A stretch of DNA of 36,257 bases from Alphaproteobacteria bacterium (GCA_040773965.1 JAXGVG010000001.1:1-36257); one strand, 5' to 3'. Counted from the stretch's first letter, positions 2,682 through 32,685 are shown. The notes: a model not told the origin generated them from the sequence alone. Program-made: numbers and translations.

Positions 2682-4670
2682 GTGAAACACAAGCCAAAAC
2701 ATAAAGATAATAAAAACAAAAAGCACAAACGCCGCTTTCGTGAGCACTTTGAAAAGCGCTTTGCCAAGCCGAAAGAGTCCGCTGAGAAAGCCAAGGTAGC
2801 GCATCCGCCACCCACGCATGTTGTGGGCGTGATCGTGAAAAAAAGTTATGGCTGGGGTTTGTTGCCCACCGATCGGCGCGACAAAAACACCTATATCATT
2901 CGCGTTCCCGCCAAGGCCGAGCAAAAGGCGGGGGAACTTGTGGCGGCGGAGGTTTTGCCGGGCACCAAACAGGGGCGGCAGGAAATACGCATTACGCATC
3001 ATCTCGGCAATCCGGACGATGCGCGGAACGTCAGCCTGATTGCCATTCATGCGAACGAAATTCCGGACCGTTTCAGCGACGCGGCGTTGCGAGAAGCCGA
3101 AGCGGCGAAGCCGGTGATTTTAGAGGGAAGCAATCGTCAAAGTGGCGTGGGCGAGAAGCTAGGCAAAGAGAACCCCTCACCTGCAAAAACCAAGGACTTG
3201 CCTGCGCAAGCCCAGGTTTTTGCTTCCTCTCCCGCAAGGGGAGAGGGATTCTTTAAACGTACGGATTTGCGCAACATTCCGTTCGTAACCATCGACGGGC
3301 CGGACGCGCGCGATTTCGATGATGCCGTATTCGTCGAGCCGGACAAAAGCGGCGGCTGGCATTTGATCGTGGCGATTGCCGATGTGGCGCATTATGTGAA
3401 AACGGGAAGCGCGCTGGACAAAACGGCTTATGAGCGCGGGAACTCGACGTATTTTCCGGATCGCGTCGTGCCGATGCTGCCGGAGGCGTTGAGCAACGAA
3501 CTGTGTTCGCTCAAACCGCACGTCGACCGCGCGTGCATGGCGGCGCATCTGTGGCTCGACAAAGCGGGCGAGTTGACGCGCTGGCAATTCGTGCGCGGCG
3601 TGATGAAGTCCCGTGCTCGCCTCACCTATGAACAGGTTCAAGCCGCGATGGACGGCAAGCCTGACAAAACGACAGGGCCGTTGCTGGAGACTATCATCAA
3701 GCCGCTTTACGGCGCTTATAAGTGTTTGATCCAGGCGCGGTTGAAACGCGGGACGCTGGAGCTTGAATTGCCCGAGCGCAAGGTGGAGCTTGGCAAGGAC
3801 GGATTCGTCAAAGCCATCAAGGTGCGCGAGCGTTTGGAGAGTCATAAACTCATTGAAGAGTTCATGATCGCGGCGAATGTCGCGGCGGCGGCACAGTTGG
3901 AGGGTACGGGCGGCGTTTGCCTCTATCGCATTCACGACAAGCCGAACGAGATGAAGCTGACGGCGCTGCGCGATTTTCTGAATAGCCTCGGCATCAGCCT
4001 CGTTCCGGCGAAGCAACTGCATTCGCGTATGCTGACGCAGATTTTGACCAAGGCGGCAAACGGACCGCATGCGCAGGTTGTCAACGAGGTCATGCTGCGT
4101 TCTCAGGCGCAGGCGATTTACAGCCCGGACAACATCGGACACTTCGGTCTGGCACTGGCGAAGTATGCGCATTTCACGTCGCCGATACGGCGTTATGCCG
4201 ATCTGGTTGTGCATCGCGGACTTATTCGCGCCTGTAAACTAGGGGTAGATGGGTTGACGGATAATGAAATTGCACGGCTGGAGGCGATTGGCGAACACAT
4301 CTCCATGACCGAGCGCCGTTCTGCCATGGCCGAGCGCGAAGCCATCGACCGCTTTACGACGCTATTTCTCGCGGACAAGGTAGGCGCGGTATTCCCCGCG
4401 CATATCAGCGGCGTCGCGCGGTTCGGCATGTTCGTTCAACTGGATGAAACGGGCGCGGATGGGATCGTTCCGTTCAACGCCCTGCCCCGCGATTTTTATA
4501 ACTTCGATGAGAAGCGGCAGGCGCTTGTCGGCCAGCGCAGCAAGCGCACCTATCAACTGGCTATGCCCGTGAAGGTAAAGCTCGAAAAAGCCGACCGCCT
4601 CACCGGCAGCATGAGCTTTTCGATTGTGGAAGATAATATAAGGCGGCCAACCCAGAAATCAGGCCGTTAA
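2682..4670 (+). CDS. rnr: ribonuclease R (3'-5' exoribonuclease, RNB family)
   Basis: RNB core motifs (FVTIDGPDARDFDDAV, YFPDRVVPMLPE, HFGLALAKYAHFTSPIRRYADLVVHR) and a C-terminal S1 domain (GVARFGMFVQLDETGADGIV). The ORF opens at TTG 2616. GTG 2682 has GGAG 5 nt upstream and avoids overlap with the preceding gene, so it is preferred. Confidence 0.9.
   Translation: MKHKPKHKDNKNKKHKRRFREHFEKRFAKPKESAEKAKVAHPPPTHVVGVIVKKSYGWGLLPTDRRDKNTYIIRVPAKAEQKAGELVAAEVLPGTKQGRQEIRITHHLGNPDDARNVSLIAIHANEIPDRFSDAALREAEAAKPVILEGSNRQSGVGEKLGKENPSPAKTKDLPAQAQVFASSPARGEGFFKRTDLRNIPFVTIDGPDARDFDDAVFVEPDKSGGWHLIVAIADVAHYVKTGSALDKTAYERGNSTYFPDRVVPMLPEALSNELCSLKPHVDRACMAAHLWLDKAGELTRWQFVRGVMKSRARLTYEQVQAAMDGKPDKTTGPLLETIIKPLYGAYKCLIQARLKRGTLELELPERKVELGKDGFVKAIKVRERLESHKLIEEFMIAANVAAAAQLEGTGGVCLYRIHDKPNEMKLTALRDFLNSLGISLVPAKQLHSRMLTQILTKAANGPHAQVVNEVMLRSQAQAIYSPDNIGHFGLALAKYAHFTSPIRRYADLVVHRGLIRACKLGVDGLTDNEIARLEAIGEHISMTERRSAMAEREAIDRFTTLFLADKVGAVFPAHISGVARFGMFVQLDETGADGIVPFNALPRDFYNFDEKRQALVGQRSKRTYQLAMPVKVKLEKADRLTGSMSFSIVEDNIRRPTQKSGR
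3183..3246. repeat. nested palindromic element lying in frame inside rnr
   Basis: An imperfect 41-nt hairpin pairs GCAAAAACC 3183-3191 with GGTTTTTGC 3215-3223, with an inner CTTGC/GCAAG pair. It is followed by an 8-bp stem, CCTCTCCC 3226-3233 / GGGAGAGG 3239-3246. This coincides with a low-complexity protein segment just upstream of the RNB motif. Confidence 0.55.
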
Positions 4671-7910: not shown

Positions 7911-9422
7911 ATGAAGGTCAAACGTTACCTTTTCTGGTTCTTTCTTTTCCTAATGACTTTTTCTTTCGCCTTGCCGCTTCCGGCAGTCGCCTCGCGCAGC
8001 GGCCCGGCGGGTTTTGCCGATCTTGCGGAAAAACTTTTGCCTTCAGTGGTCAATATATCGACTTCGCAAACGATAACGATGCAGGGTGACTTTCCGGATT
8101 TCCCCGATTTACAGCTGCCGCCCGGCTCGCCTTTTGAGGAATTTTTCAAGGATTTCCTGGAAAAACAGGGGCGCAACGGCAAGGAGGGCGGCAAACCCCG
8201 CAAGCATAAAACCACGTCGCTGGGGTCCGGGTTCATTGTCGATTCGTCCGGTTACATCGTGACCAACAATCACGTCATTCAGGACGCCGACGAAATTACG
8301 GTCATTCTTCAGGACGACACCAACCTTCCCGCTACGCTTGTCGGGCGCGACAAGAAAACGGATCTGGCGCTTCTTAAGGTCGAGACCAAAAAGCCGCTGT
8401 CGGCCGTGGGCTGGGGCGACAGCGACAGGATTCGCGTCGGCGACTGGATTTTGGCTATCGGCAATCCTTTCGGGCTCGGCGGCACGGTGACGACGGGCAT
8501 TATTTCGGCGCGCGCGCGCGACATCAACTCAGGCCCTTATGACGATTATCTGCAAACCGACGCGCCTATCAATCGCGGCAATTCGGGCGGTCCCATGTTC
8601 AACATGGACGGCGAGGTTATCGGCGTGAACACCGCCATCTTTTCACCCTCCGGCGGGTCGATCGGCATCGGCTTCGCCATTCCCTCAACCATGGCGAAAA
8701 ACGTCATCGAGCAGCTTAAGACCATAGGCCACACGCGGCGCGGGTGGCTTGGCGTGAAAATTCAGGTCGTAACGCCGGAAATTGCCGAAAGCCTCGGCAT
8801 CGGCAAGCCGCGCGGCGCGCTGGTTTCCAGCGTGAACCCCGACGGACCGGCGGCCAAGGCTGCTGTCGAGCAGGGCGACGTGATTGTTACGTTCGACGGC
8901 AAGGAAGTGACGGAAATGCACCGCCTCCCCCGCATCGTGGCGGAAACCGAAGTGGACAAGACGGTGCCGATGACCGTCGTCCGGAAAGGCAAGGAACTAA
9001 CCTTGAACGTCAAGGTTGGCGAGCTTGAATCGCAGGATCAGGCGGCCGACGAAGAAAGCGAGAAGGACGAAATTAAACCGTCTGTCGCCAACGCCATAAA
9101 GGTTGAAGACCTTGGCCTGAGCGTCGCGTCCCTGACGGATATGTTGCGGAAGCGCTTCGACCTTAACAAGGATTCGACCGGCGTCGTCGTTGTAAGCGTG
9201 GAAAACGGCGAACTGGCGTCCGATTACGGGATCCAGACGGGGGACGTCATCAGCGAGGCATCGCAGAAAGAGATAAAGACGGGCAAGGACCTGATCGATA
9301 TTATCAGGGCCGCGAAGAAGGACGGGAAGCCGGTCCTTTTGCTCGTGGACCGGAAAGGCGATCTTCGCTTTGTCGCGGTGAGCTTTGCGAAAAAGAAGGA
9401 GAAGCCGAAGGGCAAGGATTAG
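7911..9422 (+). CDS. degP: periplasmic serine endoprotease DegP/HtrA family (two PDZ domains)
   Basis: Signal peptide, a trypsin-like triad context (VTNNHVI, DLALLKV, GNSGGPMFN) and two PDZ-like C-terminal segments. Confidence 0.9.
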   Translation: MKVKRYLFWFFLFLMTFSFALPLPAVASRSGPAGFADLAEKLLPSVVNISTSQTITMQGDFPDFPDLQLPPGSPFEEFFKDFLEKQGRNGKEGGKPRKHKTTSLGSGFIVDSSGYIVTNNHVIQDADEITVILQDDTNLPATLVGRDKKTDLALLKVETKKPLSAVGWGDSDRIRVGDWILAIGNPFGLGGTVTTGIISARARDINSGPYDDYLQTDAPINRGNSGGPMFNMDGEVIGVNTAIFSPSGGSIGIGFAIPSTMAKNVIEQLKTIGHTRRGWLGVKIQVVTPEIAESLGIGKPRGALVSSVNPDGPAAKAAVEQGDVIVTFDGKEVTEMHRLPRIVAETEVDKTVPMTVVRKGKELTLNVKVGELESQDQAADEESEKDEIKPSVANAIKVEDLGLSVASLTDMLRKRFDLNKDSTGVVVVSVENGELASDYGIQTGDVISEASQKEIKTGKDLIDIIRAAKKDGKPVLLLVDRKGDLRFVAVSFAKKKEKPKGKD

Positions 9423-11843: not shown

Positions 11844-12884
11844 TTATGCCGTTTGCGTGCCATTTGAAACAGCCGCCTGGGCCCTTTGCCAGCGCGCCAG
11901 AGATGTGGAGCCGATGGCGGGAAGCGCATCGGCGATAAGCCTCATTTCCGGCAAAGTGCCGGGACAGTAGAGGACGATGTCGGCCCCTGCCCACAAGGCG
12001 CGAAGGGCGAGTTCGTCGAGATTGGATTTAGGGGCCTCATCCAAGCCGCACTCCCCCTCCCCTAACCCCTCCCTCGAGGGGAGGGGAAGTCTTCCGCCCG
12101 GCGCGGAAAGCGCCTTCATGGCGAGGTCGTCGGAAAACAGCAAGCCTTGGAAGCCAAGCGCGCCGCGTATGATTTCCTGGTGCACGATTGGCGAAAGCGA
12201 TACGGGCGCATCAGGATCAAGCGCTGTGAACACGATGTGGCTATTCATCCCGATGGGCGCGTCTTTCAGCGCGATGAATGGCGAGAAATCTTGCGCTTCC
12301 AATAGGGCGCGTTCCGTTTCCACCGTTGGCAATGTTAAATGCGGATCGGCTTTCACGCGGCCATGACCCGGCAAGTGCTTGATGACCGGGAACACGCCGT
12401 TTTCAAGATAAGTATCAACCGCAACCCGCCCCAACGCGGCGATGACGTCCGGTTTTGCGCTAAACGCGCGGTCGCCGATAACGCTCGACGCGCCTTCGAT
12501 AAAGAGGTCAAGCACCGGCGCGCAATTGCCGTTGATCCCGAGATCCGTCAGCATTTTGGCCGTCGTCCGCGCATGAAATTTCATGGCTTCAAGGCCCTGC
12601 TCCGGATTTTTTTCGTAAAGCTCGCCGATATCGCGCATGGGCGCGAGCGAGGGCCAATGCGGGGGTTTCAGGCGCGCGACGCGCCCGCCCTCCTGATCGA
12701 TGAAGATGGGCGCGTCGTTACGATTGACAACCTGGCGCAAGCCGCGCGTCAGTTGGCGGACTTGATCTGGCGTTTCGCAGTTGCGTTGAAAAAGAATGAA
12801 GCCGAACGGATTGGTTTCGGCAAAGAACCCGCTTTCTTCCTGCGTGAGCGTTGGGCCGGAACAGCCGAAGAGGATGGGTTTCAT
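11844..12884 (-). CDS. nagZ: beta-N-acetylhexosaminidase NagZ (GH3)
   Basis: GH3 motifs (GFILFQRN, IDQEGGRVARL, KHLPGHG, SDDLAMKAL). It contains an extra low-complexity segment (RLPLPSREGLGEGECG) encoded by a palindromic element. Confidence 0.9.
   Translation of the reverse strand: MKPILFGCSGPTLTQEESGFFAETNPFGFILFQRNCETPDQVRQLTRGLRQVVNRNDAPIFIDQEGGRVARLKPPHWPSLAPMRDIGELYEKNPEQGLEAMKFHARTTAKMLTDLGINGNCAPVLDLFIEGASSVIGDRAFSAKPDVIAALGRVAVDTYLENGVFPVIKHLPGHGRVKADPHLTLPTVETERALLEAQDFSPFIALKDAPIGMNSHIVFTALDPDAPVSLSPIVHQEIIRGALGFQGLLFSDDLAMKALSAPGGRLPLPSREGLGEGECGLDEAPKSNLDELALRALWAGADIVLYCPGTLPEMRLIADALPAIGSTSLARWQRAQAAVSNGTQTA
12051..12090. repeat. GC-rich palindromic element lying in frame inside nagZ
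   Basis: The palindrome CCCCTCCC-TCGAG-GGGAGGGG at 12066-12086 is preceded by a partial C-rich copy (CTCCCCCTCCCCTAA). It encodes PLPSREGLGEGE within NagZ. Confidence 0.55.
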
Positions 12885-12909
12885 GAGGAATATCCTTGAA
12901 AAAGCAATG

Positions 12910-13018
12910 CGTCATTCCGGCGCATGCCGGAATCTAGCGCGCCGCGTCTGCGGCGCACATATGATTCATAAGGCTCGCCGACGCTCGCCACTGGATCCCG
13001 GCATGCGCCGGGATGACG
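12910..13018. repeat. 109-nt triple-hairpin repeat, copy A
   Basis: Left hairpin ATTCCGGC-GCAT-GCCGGAAT, central GCGCCGC-GTCT-GCGGCGC, right ATCCCGGC-ATGC-GCCGGGAT. The two terminal hairpins are near inverted copies of each other. 95 of 109 positions are identical to copy B in an ungapped hand alignment. Confidence 0.8.
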
Positions 13019-13055
13019 CATGTGAAGTGAAAAACAACAAAGGCATACATTCTTT

Positions 13056-13343
13056 TTATTTATTGAGATCATCATGCAAATCTTTCCATTCGGGATTTAG
13101 GTTTTCAATAAGGTCAAGTTTCCAAGCCCTTTTCCATTCTTTGACATTCTTTTCTCGGAGGATGGCGTCCTCAATGCGATCATAAAGTTCAAAATATACA
13201 AGCCGATGCACATTGTATCGCGAGGTAAAACCCTTAATTGTACCGTCTTTATGTTCTTTAATACGACGCGCTAAATCGTTTGTTACGCCGGCATAAAGCG
13301 TTCCATTGCGGCGGCTGGAAAGGATGTAGAAAAACCCGCTCAT
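13056..13343 (-). CDS. GIY-YIG nuclease family protein (small URI-domain, COG2827-like)
   Basis: The N-terminus FFYILSSRRNGTLYAGVTNDLARRIKEHK carries the GIY...YxG motif, followed by RLVYFE and REKNVKEWKRAWK. These are hallmarks of the ~95-aa stand-alone GIY-YIG family. Confidence 0.85.
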   Translation of the reverse strand: MSGFFYILSSRRNGTLYAGVTNDLARRIKEHKDGTIKGFTSRYNVHRLVYFELYDRIEDAILREKNVKEWKRAWKLDLIENLNPEWKDLHDDLNK

Positions 13344-13351
13344 GTTCTATA

Positions 13352-13460
13352 CGTCATTTTGGTGAACGCCGGAATCTAGCGCACCGTGTCCGCGGCGCAT
13401 ATATGATTCATAAGGCTCGCGGACGCTCGCCGCTGGATCCCGGCTTTCGCCGGGATGACT
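13352..13460. repeat. 109-nt triple-hairpin repeat, copy B
   Basis: It has the same orientation as copy A. It begins 8 nt from the GIY-YIG start codon and ends 10 nt from the SPOR gene stop. The left-arm changes relative to copy A are C-to-T transitions. Confidence 0.8.
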
Positions 13461-13470
13461 ATTGGAGAAA

Positions 13471-14337
13471 TTACTGTCTCACCACAATGCACGGGGCTTT
13501 TCTGGCCCAAAGCTCGGCGCAAATGGCGCGCGCCTGCTCGTCCGACAAGGGTTCACTTTGCACGCGGTAATAGATGCCCTTGCTGCCGAGGTCGGCCTTT
13601 GTCAATTTAAGGGATACTTTGCCGAGCGACGACGCAAATTTCGTTTGCGTCTTTTTCATTTCCTTCTGCGCCAGCGTCATGTCCGGATAGGAGCCGAGCT
13701 GGACAAGGTAGGTTTTCGGCGGCTGGCCGGTGAATAGCTCCTTCGGGATCGAGCCGACAACCATCGATTTGCTTGAAGGTTTGGGCGGCGTCTCTTTCTT
13801 CGCCGATGTAACGGCTTTGGGAGCTTTTTCCGCTTTTTCAACTTCTTTGGGAGGCTCGGCGGGCGTCGTTTCCTGTGTCACGATGCCGCCCTCAACCGGT
13901 TGCGCAGGCGCGGCTGACAAGGCCTCTTCCTTCGTCACCGGGGCCGGAGGTGCCGGTTCGACAGGAGGGGCCGTTGCTGCCGACTCTTTGGGCGCTTCGG
14001 GCGGCGGGAGAAGATGTTCGACTTCAGGTTGGCGTTCGCTCGAATTTTTGTCGAGCTGCTGAAAGACCTGTTCGTCCTGATGCGGAATGTCGATGCCGCC
14101 GGGCTGTTCCGGGCGCTGTTTCACGGGACCTTCGGCCTGTATGGTTGGTATTTCCGTTTGCGCTTCGTCCTCGCCGCCGAAGATGGCGGAAAGCGCCCAT
14201 GCGCCGCCGCCGAGAACGATCAGCGCGGCAAGAAGAACAATAACGCGGCGCAACCGTCCCGGCGTCAGGCGTTGCCGTTTCGCAAAGTCGGAACGAACGG
14301 GGCGTTCGGGAAAAAGTTCAGGCGTTGGGTTGCTCAT
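13471..14337 (-). CDS. SPOR domain-containing protein (peptidoglycan-binding, division-associated)
   Basis: An N-terminal TM segment (VIVLLAALIVLGGGAWALSAIF), a Pro/Glu/Ala-rich linker and a C-terminal SPOR-like domain (YLVQLGSYPDMTLAQ...YYRVQSEPLSDEQARAICAEL). ATG 14337 (MSNPTPE) is preferred over 14418, which lies deep inside argS. Confidence 0.8.
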   Translation of the reverse strand: MSNPTPELFPERPVRSDFAKRQRLTPGRLRRVIVLLAALIVLGGGAWALSAIFGGEDEAQTEIPTIQAEGPVKQRPEQPGGIDIPHQDEQVFQQLDKNSSERQPEVEHLLPPPEAPKESAATAPPVEPAPPAPVTKEEALSAAPAQPVEGGIVTQETTPAEPPKEVEKAEKAPKAVTSAKKETPPKPSSKSMVVGSIPKELFTGQPPKTYLVQLGSYPDMTLAQKEMKKTQTKFASSLGKVSLKLTKADLGSKGIYYRVQSEPLSDEQARAICAELWARKAPCIVVRQ

Positions 14338-16090
14338 TGCGCATTTCCTCAAGTGGTGTGCATCCCATGACGGCGAGCCCGCCAGCGATGACCGTTTGCA
14401 CGGCCTTGACGAGCACAAGCCTTGCGCGCGTCAGGGCGGGGTTGTCGGGAAGGATGAAACGGAGTGTAGCATTGTCGTTGCCCTTGTTCCACAGGCTGTG
14501 AAAAACGGCGGCAAGATCCATGAGATAGAAGGCGATCCGGTGCGGCTCCTGGGCCTGAGCCGCCGCCTCAACAACACGGGGCCAGTTGGCTAGAAAGCGG
14601 ATCAGGGCCAGCTCGTCCGGCGAATGAAGGGCGCTGGCGTCGATTTTGGCCAATGCTTTGGCCGATTGATCCGCATCGGGCATCATTTCAGCCACATGGC
14701 GCAAAACGGAACAGCAACGCGCGTGCGCGTATTGCACATAAAAAACGGGATTGTCGCGCGTTTGCTCGACGACTTTGGCAAAATCGAACTCAAGCTCGGA
14801 CTCGGGGGCGCGGGTCAGCATGAAAAAGCGCACGGCCCCTGCCCCCACCTGCTCCACCATTTCGCGCAGCGTGATGAGATTGCCGGAACGCTTGGACAGC
14901 TTCACCGGCACGCCGTTCTTAAATATTTTAACGATGTTGTTGTAGATGACTTCGAGACGCGCCTTGTTATCGCTGAAGGCGGCTACGGCCGGACGCATGC
15001 GGTCGAGATAGCCGCCGTGATCCGTGCCGAGGATGTTGATCATGTACATAAAGCCGCGCTCGATCTTGTCATGGTGATAGGCAAGATCGGGCATCATGTA
15101 CGTCCATGCGCCGTCGCGTTTTTTGAGCGGCCTGTCGGTGCTATCCCCAAAACGGCTGGAGCGGAAAAGCGTGAGCGGCACGGGCTCCCAGTCCTCCATC
15201 GCCTTGCCCTTGGGCGGCGGTAGCGTGCCCACGTAGATAAGACCCTTGTCTTCAAGGAGCTTGAAAACCTTGTCGAGCGTGCCGTTTTCAATCAATTCGC
15301 GTTCATTGGTGAACACGTCGTGATGAATGCCGATAAGATCGAGATCCTCGCGGATCATGCCCATAATAAAATTCACGGCAAAGTCGCGGAGAGGAGCGAA
15401 CCATTCGGCTTCGGCTTTGCCCAGCCATTTTTTGCCATCGCGTTTGGCAAGCGCCGCCGCGACGTCCTTCAGGTATTCGCCGGGATACATGCCTTGCGGA
15501 ATTTCGCCGATGTTTTCGCCCAGCGCCTCGCGGTAGCGCAGATAGGTCGAGCGCGCGAGGGTATCCACCTGAGCGCCCGCGTCGTTAAAATAGTATTCGC
15601 GCGTGACGGCGTAACCCGCTTTGGTGAGAAGATTGCAGAGCGTATCGCCGATTACCGCGCCGCGCACGTGCCCCGCGTGCATGGGGCCTGTCGGATTTGC
15701 GGATACGAACTCGATGTTCACACGTTCTTTCTTGCCGAGCGCGCTGTCGCCATAGGCAATGCCCGCGTTCAGAATTTCTTTGAGTTCGTTCTGCCAGACT
15801 TCGGGTTTGAGGCGAAGGTTTATGAAACCGGGCCCGGCGACGTCCACGCTTGTCACGTTTGGAAGCGCTACCAGTTTCGGCTTCAGCAGTTCGGCAATCG
15901 CGCGCGGCGGTTTACCGGCGGATTTAGCCAGCATCATCGCGACGTTTGTGGCGAGATCGCCGTGCGCCGGGTCGCGCGGGGGTTCGACGATAAAAACGGG
16001 CATCGGCGCATTCAACGCCAACGCCCCCGATTTGATCAGGTCGTCTAGAATGGCCGTAACGGCCGCGTGCATGGTTTTAAAGATGGTCAT
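14318..16090 (-). CDS. argS: arginine--tRNA ligase
   Basis: Class I motifs (SANPTGPMHAGHVRG for HIGH, and a KLSKRSG KMSK-like motif) and the DALR anticodon-binding C-terminus. ATG 16090 (MTIFKT...) is preferred over the ORF opening at 16168. Confidence 0.92.
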   Translation of the reverse strand: MTIFKTMHAAVTAILDDLIKSGALALNAPMPVFIVEPPRDPAHGDLATNVAMMLAKSAGKPPRAIAELLKPKLVALPNVTSVDVAGPGFINLRLKPEVWQNELKEILNAGIAYGDSALGKKERVNIEFVSANPTGPMHAGHVRGAVIGDTLCNLLTKAGYAVTREYYFNDAGAQVDTLARSTYLRYREALGENIGEIPQGMYPGEYLKDVAAALAKRDGKKWLGKAEAEWFAPLRDFAVNFIMGMIREDLDLIGIHHDVFTNERELIENGTLDKVFKLLEDKGLIYVGTLPPPKGKAMEDWEPVPLTLFRSSRFGDSTDRPLKKRDGAWTYMMPDLAYHHDKIERGFMYMINILGTDHGGYLDRMRPAVAAFSDNKARLEVIYNNIVKIFKNGVPVKLSKRSGNLITLREMVEQVGAGAVRFFMLTRAPESELEFDFAKVVEQTRDNPVFYVQYAHARCCSVLRHVAEMMPDADQSAKALAKIDASALHSPDELALIRFLANWPRVVEAAAQAQEPHRIAFYLMDLAAVFHSLWNKGNDNATLRFILPDNPALTRARLVLVKAVQTVIAGGLAVMGCTPLEEMRNEQPNA

Positions 16091-16157: not shown

Positions 16158-16179
16158 TTGTATAGCAAATGCTATACAA
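16158..16179. promoter_or_regulatory. perfect 10-bp-arm palindrome, candidate antitoxin operator
   Basis: TTGTATAGCA-AA-TGCTATACAA lies 19 nt upstream of the antitoxin ATG, just before the AGGAGG SD. It sits in the 108-nt gap shared with divergent argS. Confidence 0.55.
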
Positions 16180-16198
16180 CATATCAAGGAGGAAAAAC

Positions 16199-16456
16199 AT
16201 GCGCAAAACGGAAATGATCAATACACGCCTTGAGCCCAAGCTGAAAAAATCTTCCGAGGCTATATTCGCCCGTTTGGGGGTTTCTACTTCTGAAGCCATT
16301 ACCATGTTCTTGAATCAGGTGGTTATGCATAAGGGATTCCCCTTTCCAATTCGCATTCCAAATGCCCAAACGCGAGCGGCCATAAAAGAGGCAAAAGAAA
16401 GACGCAACCTTGAATCGCACGCTGATTTTTCTTCTTATTTAAAAACAATCAAGTAG
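16199..16456 (+). CDS. type II antitoxin, RelB/DinJ family
   Basis: The N-terminal ribbon-helix-helix signature INTRLEPKLKKSSEAIFARLGVSTSEAITMFLNQV is typical of DinJ/RelB. AGGAGG lies 7 nt upstream of ATG 16199. A toxin gene follows 8 nt downstream. Confidence 0.8.
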   Translation: MRKTEMINTRLEPKLKKSSEAIFARLGVSTSEAITMFLNQVVMHKGFPFPIRIPNAQTRAAIKEAKERRNLESHADFSSYLKTIK

Positions 16457-16464
16457 CTTGCGCG

Positions 16465-16731
16465 ATGCGTTCCCTCGTTATTCGCAAACGGTTTGACCGT
16501 GATATCAAGCTTGCCCGCAAACGCGGCAAAAAGATAGACAAGCTGCGCGGTGTTGTTGACGATCTTCAGGCCGGAAGACCATTGGCTGCCCGGCACAGGC
16601 CTCATCTGCTTGGTGGCGAATGGCAGGATTGTTGGGAATGCCACATCGAACCTGACTGGCTGCTCATTTATCAGCTTACCGAAGATGAGCTTGTTCTCAT
16701 CCGCACAGGTACGCATAGCGATTTGTTCTAA
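16465..16731 (+). CDS. type II toxin, YafQ/RelE family mRNA interferase
   Basis: 88 aa. FDRDIKLARKRGKKIDKL...HLLGGEWQDCWECHIEPDWLLIY...LIRTGTHSDLF matches the YafQ-type signature (from memory). Its stop overlaps the convergent dgt stop. Confidence 0.8.
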   Translation: MRSLVIRKRFDRDIKLARKRGKKIDKLRGVVDDLQAGRPLAARHRPHLLGGEWQDCWECHIEPDWLLIYQLTEDELVLIRTGTHSDLF

Positions 16732-31375: not shown

Positions 31376-32685
31376 TCCCGCGTTATTCCCGCGCCGAAAT
31401 GGCGCGAATTTGGGAGCCGGAAAACAGATTCCGCATATGGTTCGAGATTGAGGCGCATGCCTGCGACGCTCAGGCCCGTCTCGGCGTCATTCCGGCGCAA
31501 GCCGCGAAAAACGTCTGGAAAAAGGGCAAATGGAACCTGTCCCGCATCGACAGGATCGAGCGGGAAACGCGCCACGACGTTCTGGCCTTTCTGACCAATC
31601 TGGCCGAACACGTCGGGACCGACGCGCGTTTCATCCATCAGGGCATGACGTCGAGCGACATACTGGATACGGCGCTGGCCATCCAGATGAAACACGCGGC
31701 GGCGATCCTGTTGAACGACATTGACGCCCTGCTCAAGGTTCTCAGGCAAAAGATCGACAAGCATATCGGCACGCCGGCCATCGGACGCAGCCACGGCATA
31801 CACGCCGAACCGACAAGCTTCGGCCTGAAACTGGCGTCGCATTACGCCGCGTTCCAGCGCGCGCGCAAGCGCCTTCTGGCGGCGCAGGAGGACATTTCGA
31901 CATGCGCCATTTCCGGCCCCGTCGGCACTTTCGCGACCATCGATCCGCGCGTTGAAGCGTATGTGGCCAGGAAACTCGGCCTGAAAATCGAGCCGGTCTC
32001 GACCCAGGTCATTCCCCGCGACCGTCACGCGATGTATTTCGCGACGCTGGGCGTGATCGCGAGTTCCGTCGAAAATCTGGCGCTGGAAATTCGCCACTTG
32101 CAGCGCAGCGAGGTCCGCGAGGCAGAGGAACCGTTCGCCAAGGGCCAAAAAGGCTCAAGCGCCATGCCCCACAAGCGCAACCCCATTCTAGCCGAAAATC
32201 TTACCGGGCTTGCGCGTATCGTCCGCGCGGCGGTGACGCCCGCCCTCGAAAACGTCGCGCTGTGGCATGAGCGGGATATATCCCATTCGGCTGTGGAGCG
32301 CGTGATCGCGCCGGACGCGACGATCGCGCTCGACTTCGCGTTGGCGCGTCTTGCGGGGCTTATCAAGGGCATGACGGTGTATCCCGGACGCATGATGGCC
32401 AATCTGGAGGCGTTGGGCGGGCTGTATTTCTCCCAGCGCGTTCTTTTGGCTCTAATCCAAAAAGGCTTAAGCCGCGAGGCCGCCTATAAAATCGTGCAGT
32501 CGAACGCGATGGCCGTATGGGAGGACATACAGGAAGGCAAGGCGGCGAATTTTCAGGAGCGTCTCTCGAAGGATAAAACGATCCGCAAAAAATTGCCGCC
32601 CGGGGAGCTTGCGGCCTGTTTCGACCTGAAGTTCTACCTTCGCCACGCGCGAACGGTCTGGAAGCGCGTGCGAAAAGGGAAATAG
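31372..32685 (+). CDS. purB: adenylosuccinate lyase
   Basis: The N-terminus MIPRYSRAEMARIWEPENRF and the fumarate-lyase signature GSSAMPHKRNP are typical of PurB. The ORF opens at 31123, but that extension overlaps the lipoprotein gene and looks non-coding. Confidence 0.92.
   Translation: MIPRYSRAEMARIWEPENRFRIWFEIEAHACDAQARLGVIPAQAAKNVWKKGKWNLSRIDRIERETRHDVLAFLTNLAEHVGTDARFIHQGMTSSDILDTALAIQMKHAAAILLNDIDALLKVLRQKIDKHIGTPAIGRSHGIHAEPTSFGLKLASHYAAFQRARKRLLAAQEDISTCAISGPVGTFATIDPRVEAYVARKLGLKIEPVSTQVIPRDRHAMYFATLGVIASSVENLALEIRHLQRSEVREAEEPFAKGQKGSSAMPHKRNPILAENLTGLARIVRAAVTPALENVALWHERDISHSAVERVIAPDATIALDFALARLAGLIKGMTVYPGRMMANLEALGGLYFSQRVLLALIQKGLSREAAYKIVQSNAMAVWEDIQEGKAANFQERLSKDKTIRKKLPPGELAACFDLKFYLRHARTVWKRVRKGK

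Follow-up and report, generated by a model that had tools for sequence, protein, structure and literature searches.

A small GIY-YIG nuclease gene bracketed by two direct copies of a hairpin-rich repeat raises the question of whether nuclease and repeats belong together and, if they do, what the one would do to the other. The gene lies between a SPOR-domain gene and nagZ in a 36,257-nt stretch of alphaproteobacterial DNA (hereafter the window; Table 1), and a preliminary description had likened the arrangement to that of REP elements flanking their RAYT transposase, with a GIY-YIG nuclease in place of the HUH enzyme, while stating that it knew of no established mechanism for such a pairing. 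We find that the locus is already explained by a system published in 2025, of which it is a new example: it is very probably an Ssn/SRM cassette, in which an inverted dimer of the cognate SRM, a CGTC-tagged REP hairpin, stands on either side of ssnA.

Table 1. Features of the ssnA locus, in window coordinates
Feature	Coordinates	Strand	Remarks
nagZ, family-3 glycosidase	11844-12884	same as ssnA	neighbouring gene
Copy A, two SRM hairpins as an inverted dimer, spacer ~53 nt	12907-13017		between ssnA stop codon and nagZ start codon
SRM1 CGTCATTCCGGCGCATGCCGGAATCTAG	12910-12937	+	SRM match; NTS-type strand is +; ssDNA hairpin -10.7 kcal/mol
SRM2 CGTCATCCCGGCGCATGCCGGGATCCAG	12991-13018	-	SRM match; hairpin -9.8 kcal/mol
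ssnA homologue, 95-aa single-domain GIY-YIG nuclease	13056-13343	-	Pfam PF01541, E 2.6e-16, residues 3-76
Copy B, the other inverted SRM dimer (87% identity with copy A)	13349-13459		between SPOR gene stop codon and ssnA start codon
SRM3 CGTCATTTTGGTGAACGCCGGAATCTAG, degenerate, stem broken	13352-13379	+	loose SRM match; 8 nt from ssnA ATG
SRM4 AGTCATCCCGGCGAAAGCCGGGATCCAG	13433-13460	-	SRM match; hairpin -9.8 kcal/mol; 10 nt past SPOR gene stop codon
SPOR-domain gene	13471-14418	same as ssnA	neighbouring gene

The Pfam match confirms that the space between the copies is filled by a 95-aa GIY-YIG ORF, as first described, and no second domain was found in this protein. Its ATG stands 5-8 nt from copy B depending on the boundary chosen, in agreement with the 8 nt originally given. 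The GC content of the gene is 41%, compared with 56% for the window, and homologues were lower in GC than their own flanks at 83 of 83 loci; because the whole family is low in GC, the value is not evidence of recent transfer. No sigma-70-like promoter was recognised on either strand in or beside the repeats. As ssnA runs in the same direction as the SPOR gene and nagZ, and no promoter of its own could be recognised, it is probably expressed by read-through from the SPOR gene, the likeliest source of its transcripts.

The two copies form the single direct-repeat family of the window. Each is 111 nt long, their spacing is 442 nt, and they are 87.4% identical over the 111 nt (blastn, E 8e-33), with 14 positions that differ; blastn found no third copy within the 36-kb window. 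One candidate at 31484-31508 proved to be a 25-nt chance match inside a 520-aa ORF, and an 18-mer from the spacer core (ATGATTCATAAGGCTCGC) returned six loci from metagenome contigs, all of them 18-27-nt chance matches that are uninformative on copy number. Rfam models at gathering threshold recognised tRNA only and gave no match to the repeats. The preliminary description was right that two direct copies surround the gene and that the terminal 8-bp stems (ATTCCGGC/GCCGGAAT and ATCCCGGC/GCCGGGAT) are inverted copies of each other, the stem pattern GATYCCGGCNNNNGCCGGRATGAC having three matches in the window against 0.00 expected.

The repeat itself therefore stands, but the 109-nt triple-hairpin unit first proposed for it does not. 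Copy A is an imperfect long palindrome, an inverted repeat with 46-nt arms that are 80% complementary, and folds as DNA with -47.8 kcal/mol (z -7.75, compared with z -3.67 for copy B); with a long imperfect palindrome in each copy, three hairpins are only one possible fold among several. What the unit is can be read from two close homologues, one between rpoB and rpoC (L021, 69% identity) and one that follows an M20 peptidase gene (L026, 65% identity). Each has, on either side, a single copy of the terminal hairpin of the 111-nt unit in inverted orientation, with CGTCATCCCGGCGTAAGCCGGGATCCAG upstream and the reverse complement downstream of the gene, and neither has the 111-nt unit itself. Copies A and B are thus best described as inverted doublets of one 28-nt, CGTC-headed hairpin (CGTCAT-stem-loop-stem-ATCCAG) separated by a spacer.

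Both the enzyme and the hairpin have been described before. [quoted passage not shown] Its motif in Neisseria is the NTS, CGTCATTCCCGCGMAVGCGGGAATCYRG, the generalised form of which, the SRM, is specifically associated with ssnA (PMC11893778). SsnA binds this motif only as ssDNA and on one strand only, cuts a few nucleotides upstream, and acts on neither dsDNA nor RNA; Y6A, Y17A and E64A abolish cleavage by Nm SsnA, and specific binding with site-specific ssDNA cleavage upstream of the hairpin was demonstrated for four homologues (PMC11893778). In N. meningitidis, where alone a role has been shown, the enzyme lowers transformation by NTS-bearing DNA (PMC11893778). The earlier remark that no mechanism was established is accordingly out of date.

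The hairpin has a longer history: CGTC-tagged REPs combine a CGTC head with a stem of 8-9 bp that opens with AT, a loop of 4-5 nt and the tail CCA (Di Nocera, De Gregorio, Rocco 2013, PMC3733652). Neisseria dRS3 and Rickettsia RPE-4/6 belong to these REPs, which are found mainly as inverted dimers around conserved, structured spacers of 20-100 bp that can fold as one large stem-loop, and which "apparently lack a dedicated transposase" (PMC3733652). The authors of the 2013 study are not named in the text of PMC11893778. The Ssn motif of 2025 (NTS/SRM) and the CGTC REP class of 2013 are the same thing. The hairpins in the window share with this class the CGTC head, the 8-bp stem starting AT, the 4-nt loop, a C(C/T)A tail and the inverted dimers around a conserved, structured spacer, which here measures ~53 nt and is conserved between copies A and B; they differ in that they flank an enzyme gene, whereas PMC3733652 found no dedicated enzyme.

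Searching the window with the published SRM pattern, HGTCWYN(0-2)YYVSBRHN(0-5)WNVSBRGN(0-2)RNCYNB (PMC11893778), yielded exactly four matches, which are the four ends of the two copies, compared with 0.14 in shuffled sequence. In SRM1, SRM2 and SRM4, an 8-bp stem that starts with AT encloses a 4-nt loop, the heads being CGTC, CGTC and AGTC and the tails CTA, CCA and CCA, respectively, while SRM3 keeps its CGTC head on a broken stem. Alignment confirmed that the left arm of copy B carries three substitutions, all of them C-to-T (ATTCCGGC to ATTTTGGT), as had been noted before. These three changes abolish the DNA hairpin of SRM3, which as ssDNA reaches only -2.2 kcal/mol (z +0.40) against about -10 for SRM1, SRM2 and SRM4. 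SRM3 would then be a decayed copy, a simpler reading than the RNA pairing considered below, and the loss of a strong hairpin at the translation start of ssnA may have been tolerated or favoured.

Comparison of the protein with Neisseria points to the same system. PLSDB includes two N. gonorrhoeae chromosomes labelled as plasmids, one of which gave a tblastn match to the window protein with E 8e-27 and 56% identity, where homologues in PMC11893778 were taken at tblastn E < 1e-10. The corresponding 94-aa ORF aligns with the window protein over 93 residues without gaps (BLASTP E 8e-38, 56% identity) and has NTS dimers on both sides, arranged '><' gene '><' as in the window; from its length, NTS flanks and catalytic residues we infer that it is the orthologue of Nm SsnA. 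Y6, Y17 and E64 are invariant in an alignment of 42 homologues and are in register with the N. gonorrhoeae ORF.

We then asked how far the association extends among relatives, of which more than 600 were matched at one genome per species and the best 80 loci fetched. The proteins encoded at these 80 share 54-64% identity with that of the window, and their hosts comprise Alpha-, Beta-, Gamma- and Deltaproteobacteria, Planctomycetes, Chloroflexi, Ignavibacteria, Bacteroidota, Verrucomicrobiota and several candidate-phyla-radiation lineages. Most of them show a GTC-hairpin-CCA upstream of the gene and a TGG-hairpin-GAC downstream. At 53 of 82 homologue loci (65%) an SRM lies no more than 400 nt from the gene, and at 29 (35%) there is one on both sides. 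SRM density over the 82 loci is 1.70 per kb within 400 nt and 0.053 per kb further away (~32-fold), and perfect 8-bp-stem hairpins number 2.87 per kb within 300 nt compared with 0.079 per kb over the other 1.15 Mb of flanking sequence, for an overall near-gene enrichment of 32- to 36-fold within 300-400 nt. Hairpins distant from the genes stand singly, form inverted doublets with 20-100 nt between them or, in occasional cases, make up tandem arrays. Pairing is kept across 49 distinct left arms between loci, a count that is only suggestive because the hairpin finder itself required pairing. The enrichment beside GIY-YIG genes on which the original idea hung is hence found near homologues in many phyla, and the REP/RAYT-like layout with a GIY-YIG nuclease is upheld, since the same hairpin flanks the homologues, and SsnA homologues bind it and cut the DNA next to it (PMC11893778). 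This supports the view that repeats and mini-nuclease form a functional pair laid out like REP and RAYT.

The layout of the locus, the homology, the match to the motif and the cross-phylum enrichment are direct observations, from which we infer an activity at this locus and a cellular role. By homology with the characterised Neisseria and Wolbachia enzymes, the 95-aa protein would bind the hairpin only in single-stranded DNA, limited to the strand reading 5'-CGTCAT...ATCCAG-3', and would then cut the bound strand a few nucleotides upstream of the motif. Its substrates would be SRM1, SRM2 and SRM4, the stem of SRM3 being lost; at SRM1 the predicted cut falls a few nt 5' of 12910 in single-stranded plus-strand DNA, a position derived from PMC11893778. 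The likely result would be cleavage of SRM-bearing ssDNA, including incoming transforming or conjugative DNA and replication or recombination intermediates, and such cleavage could shape recombination around SRM sites. The locus shares with the published Ssn/SsnA system (PMC11893778) a single-domain GIY-YIG protein of 94-95 aa, the residues Y6/Y17/E64, SRM hairpins on both sides and the '><' gene '><' dimers; it differs in its uncultured alphaproteobacterial host, in having one degenerate SRM out of four, and in an activity that is here predicted from sequence. The stems differ as well, ATTCCCGC in Neisseria compared with ATCCCGGC/ATTCCGGC at this locus.

Two other kinds of system offer partial parallels. 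In REP/REPIN-RAYT systems, as here, short hairpin repeats, often in inverted doublets, flank one small nuclease gene whose product recognises them as ssDNA. RAYTs, however, are HUH/Y1, IS200-like transposases that form covalent intermediates and go with GTAG-headed repeats, whereas the enzyme here is a hydrolytic GIY-YIG nuclease and the head is CGTC; strand transfer is not known for Ssn. The "peel and paste" elements of the IS200/IS605 group likewise have subterminal hairpins that are recognised on one ssDNA strand, with cleavage at a set distance. Both ends of such an element lie on one strand and are asymmetric, and the DNA is rejoined by TnpA, while simple Ssn cassettes have inverted ends and thus one cleavable site per strand.

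The alternative that survives best is that the cassette is an autonomous IS-like mobile element with Ssn as its transposition nuclease, the SRM dimers being non-autonomous, MITE/REPIN-like derivatives. We regard this as doubtful, and give slightly less credence still to the related proposal that the SRM dimer-ssnA-SRM dimer moves via ssDNA, or did so recently, with Ssn making the cuts. In such a scheme, the '><' gene '><' layout would provide two same-strand cleavage sites exactly 442 nt apart, i.e. one period, and two cuts would free a single strand one unit long, which could insert next to another SRM. Alternatively, cuts at the outer edges of a dimer would produce a 111-nt staggered break, the fill-in of which would duplicate the dimer around the insert. 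If this were true, CGTC REPs would have a dedicated transposase after all, and a hydrolytic GIY-YIG enzyme at that.

Several observations are consistent with mobility. Close homologues sit in unrelated conserved gene settings (rpoB-rpoC, the M20 peptidase gene, and SPOR-nagZ here), one relative (L119) has an empty rpoB-rpoC spacer of 44 nt, and homologues from different phyla are still 54-64% identical. Direct repeats of an SRM pair surround ssnA at 12 other loci and longer variant palindromes do so at five more, and the gene-less inverted SRM doublets in the flanks look like derivatives. The IS-like architecture was noted too by the authors of PMC11893778, for whom mobilisation by Ssn is a hypothesis. 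In one contig (L004), the SRM4 edge of the same cassette meets different sequence 13 nt upstream of a capsid gene, the junction having 1 nt of microhomology, and three Logan contigs begin exactly at the outer-edge nucleotide of SRM4. This junction, however, stands in a single 1.6-kb contig, and the other contigs with the capsid gene (15 read, 6 places obtained) show it in the normal context.

Target-site evidence is likewise divided. Direct duplications of host sequence, 18-46 nt long, abut 5 of 48 elements, which is above the 99th percentile of controls, but the other 43 have no flank duplication, a consistent short target-site duplication is absent from 17 simple elements, and the best flank match at the window locus is 6 nt. 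Duplications of 20-46 nt were for this reason dropped as a general target-site duplication, the controlled test giving only 5/48 and no short duplication being visible. The marks of an insertion sequence are defined ends with a constant target-site duplication and several near-identical copies; the cassette does not show this pattern, a second context appearing only in the one short contig. Look-ups with the NagZ and ScpA proteins revealed no empty SPOR-nagZ site in near-identical strains, each contig either having the cassette or breaking inside it, and any duplication of the dimer must be old, since copies A and B differ at 14 positions. Finally, GIY-YIG enzymes hydrolyse DNA, and we know of no strand-joining activity among them.

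It is very unlikely that the hairpin dimers are instead generic host REPs, acting as terminators, mRNA stabilisers or protein-binding sites, and that the GIY-YIG gene landed by chance in a repeat-rich, insertion-prone spacer. Solo SRMs do occur between unrelated genes, both in this organism and in other genomes: ~57 kb of the source organism contain, in addition to the four that flank ssnA, two clear solo SRMs (L107, 8094-8121 and 15997-16024) between genes of a phage-like or gene-transfer-agent-like cluster and one degenerate copy (L109) seen as a weak blastn match only. The SPOR-nagZ spacer is variable as well, as a relative of ~80% nucleotide identity (L013) has no ssnA there and carries a different 155-aa ORF, and its SPOR stop codon is followed immediately by a half-SRM relic. 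Such a relic without ssnA suggests that the SRM at this site is probably older than the present gene content. A chance landing is nevertheless hard to reconcile with the 32- to 36-fold enrichment of SRMs within 300-400 nt of ssnA homologues in many phyla, or with the specific binding and cleavage by four homologues (PMC11893778). The version in which the repeats are simply generic terminators, raised in the preliminary description as fatal to its own idea, fails because no terminator-like site was found in or beside the repeats, the sole match in 12700-13700 being at 13631-13651; an intrinsic terminator consists of a GC-rich hairpin followed by a T-tract, and none of these hairpins is followed by a T-tract.

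Highly improbable, too, is the suggestion that the repeats act as RNA, a plus-strand antisense transcript keeping the copy B hairpin through G-U pairs and regulating the nuclease gene. The pairing arithmetic behind this suggestion, which came with the first description of the locus, is correct, as SRM3 folds with -8.0 kcal/mol as plus-strand RNA and forms no hairpin as minus-strand RNA. A role as RNA is nevertheless not supported: the fold is no better than that of shuffled sequence (z -1.21, with 25 of 200 shuffles equalling it), its basis is three substitutions in one arm of one copy that is degenerate as DNA, neither strand shows a promoter-like site, Rfam gives no match, and SsnA neither binds nor cuts RNA (PMC11893778).

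Hardly any weight can be given to the remaining idea, that the ORF encodes either a free-standing GIY-YIG homing endonuclease or a repair nuclease of the UPF0213/YhbQ or Cho type and is unrelated to the repeats: its place between conserved genes and its low GC recall phage Seg and Mob genes, and it has weak matches to TIGR01453 (E 5.5e-4, 20 bits compared with a cut-off of 56) and to the UPF0213 structures 1ZG2 (E 3e-5) and 1YWL (E 2e-3), but homing endonucleases such as the phage T4 Seg proteins and I-TevI, for all that they share the GIY-YIG catalytic domain and the intergenic insertion between conserved genes, have a separate DNA-binding domain and cut dsDNA, whereas the window protein is the catalytic domain alone in 95 aa; the low GC is family-wide (83/83 loci), the 56% identity to the Neisseria ssnA ORF stands against 27.6 bits to UPF0213 proteins, and no phage homologues were found at E 1e-10.

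As an Ssn/SRM cassette, the locus adds nothing fundamental, being one Ssn/SRM pair among thousands. The survey of its relatives does provide an independent replication of the published association in a different genome collection, with SRMs flanking 65% of loci on any side and 35% on both, compared with 71% and 42% (PMC11893778). It also offers comparative hints on whether Ssn spreads its repeats, in the form of dimer direct repeats, occasional long host duplications and an empty rpoB-rpoC site. Each Ssn/SRM pair, finally, is a candidate sequence-specific ssDNA-cutting reagent, and the one described here has a stem, ATCCCGGC, unlike that of Neisseria.

Direct repeats like those of the window flank the gene for the single-domain GIY-YIG nuclease, ssnA, in loci L028, L039, L044, L045, L054, L056, L057, L062, L064, L100, L104 and L105, and direct repeats around the gene are also found in L027, L074, L078, L079 and L103. 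These repeats are 25-220 nt long and 83-100% identical, and each carries either a pair of Ssn-related motifs (SRMs) or a longer variant palindrome. The ssnA locus of Neisseria gonorrhoeae (L118) has the same layout, with direct repeats flanking the nuclease gene. Two N. gonorrhoeae records in PLSDB, NZ_CP119140.1 and NZ_CP119142.1, are labelled as plasmids, and their size of 2.17 Mb each suggests that they are whole chromosomes, a mislabelling that makes a direct comparison with the Neisseria ssnA locus possible. In an Ignavibacteria MAG (L032), SRMs form a tandem array 2.7 kb away from an ssnA homologue.

Base composition was compared across the window and 82 homologue loci (L021, L026 and L027-L106). 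In all of these (83/83), the GC content of ssnA was below that of its 10-kb flanks, with a mean deficit of 10 points, and this was the case in high-GC and low-GC hosts alike.

At the rpoB-rpoC spacer of L021, the insert lies between the two copies of a 43-nt direct duplication that covers the start codon and first 14 codons of rpoC. These copies are 98% identical, and the native leader belongs to the downstream one. One relative has an empty site, and another (L120) has three other small ORFs at this position. Direct duplications of host sequence, 18-49 nt long and with paired copies 88-100% identical, abut SRM-bounded elements in L060, L034, L021, L026 and L097, as well as in L051 and L043, and often include the final or initial codons of the adjacent gene. 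In a controlled test of flank duplication, 5 of 48 elements scored above the 99th percentile of controls.

Coordinates of SRM-associated features and compared sites
Locus	Position	Feature	Context
L021 (NCBI GCA_964456415.1)	3880-4431	ssnA homologue, inverted SRMs and 205-aa ORF (function not known)	rpoB-rpoC spacer
L119	2957-3000	Empty rpoB-rpoC site, spacer just 44 nt	In a relative
L032	13066-13602	Tandem array, 7.8 copies of 69-nt unit	One SRM per unit, all same orientation
L004 (JGI 3300026155)	1100-1120	Cassette/capsid-gene junction	Compared with L107 9988-10001
L107	1-4360 and 6791-21233	Type II CRISPR-Cas locus (Cas9, Cas1, Cas2) and adjoining structural gene cluster	
L107	8094-8121	Solo SRM	Between terminase and portal genes
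L107	15997-16024	Solo SRM	
L013	8273-8949	SPOR-nagZ spacer of relative	Low-GC 155-aa ORF, opposite strand
L013	about 8287-8303	Half-SRM relic GACATCCCGGCGAAAGC	Immediately after SPOR stop codon
Window	16169-16731	RelB antitoxin/YafQ toxin pair	Between argS and HD-domain dGTPase-like gene

In contig L004 the window's cassette recurs with one mismatch. There the outer edge of its SRM4 is fused to a site that precedes an HK97-type capsid gene by 13 nt, with the end of the protease gene replaced by the cassette. Microhomology at this junction amounts to 1 nt only, which excludes a k-mer assembly chimera. Three Logan contigs start at the same nucleotide as the junction, and the remaining contigs with this capsid gene show the normal context (15 read, 6 places returned). 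On L107, a 100-kb contig from the same organism as the window, the structural cluster beside the CRISPR-Cas locus is phage-like or gene-transfer-agent-like.

In a relative with ~80% nucleotide identity (L013; 689-kb contig, JGI 3300028625), ssnA is absent from the SPOR-nagZ spacer, which instead holds an ORF with no Pfam match. At the position of the window's RelB/YafQ pair, this relative carries unrelated genes, namely a 183-aa ORF and a NUDIX gene, and the conserved block of the window thus includes at least two variable insertion points.
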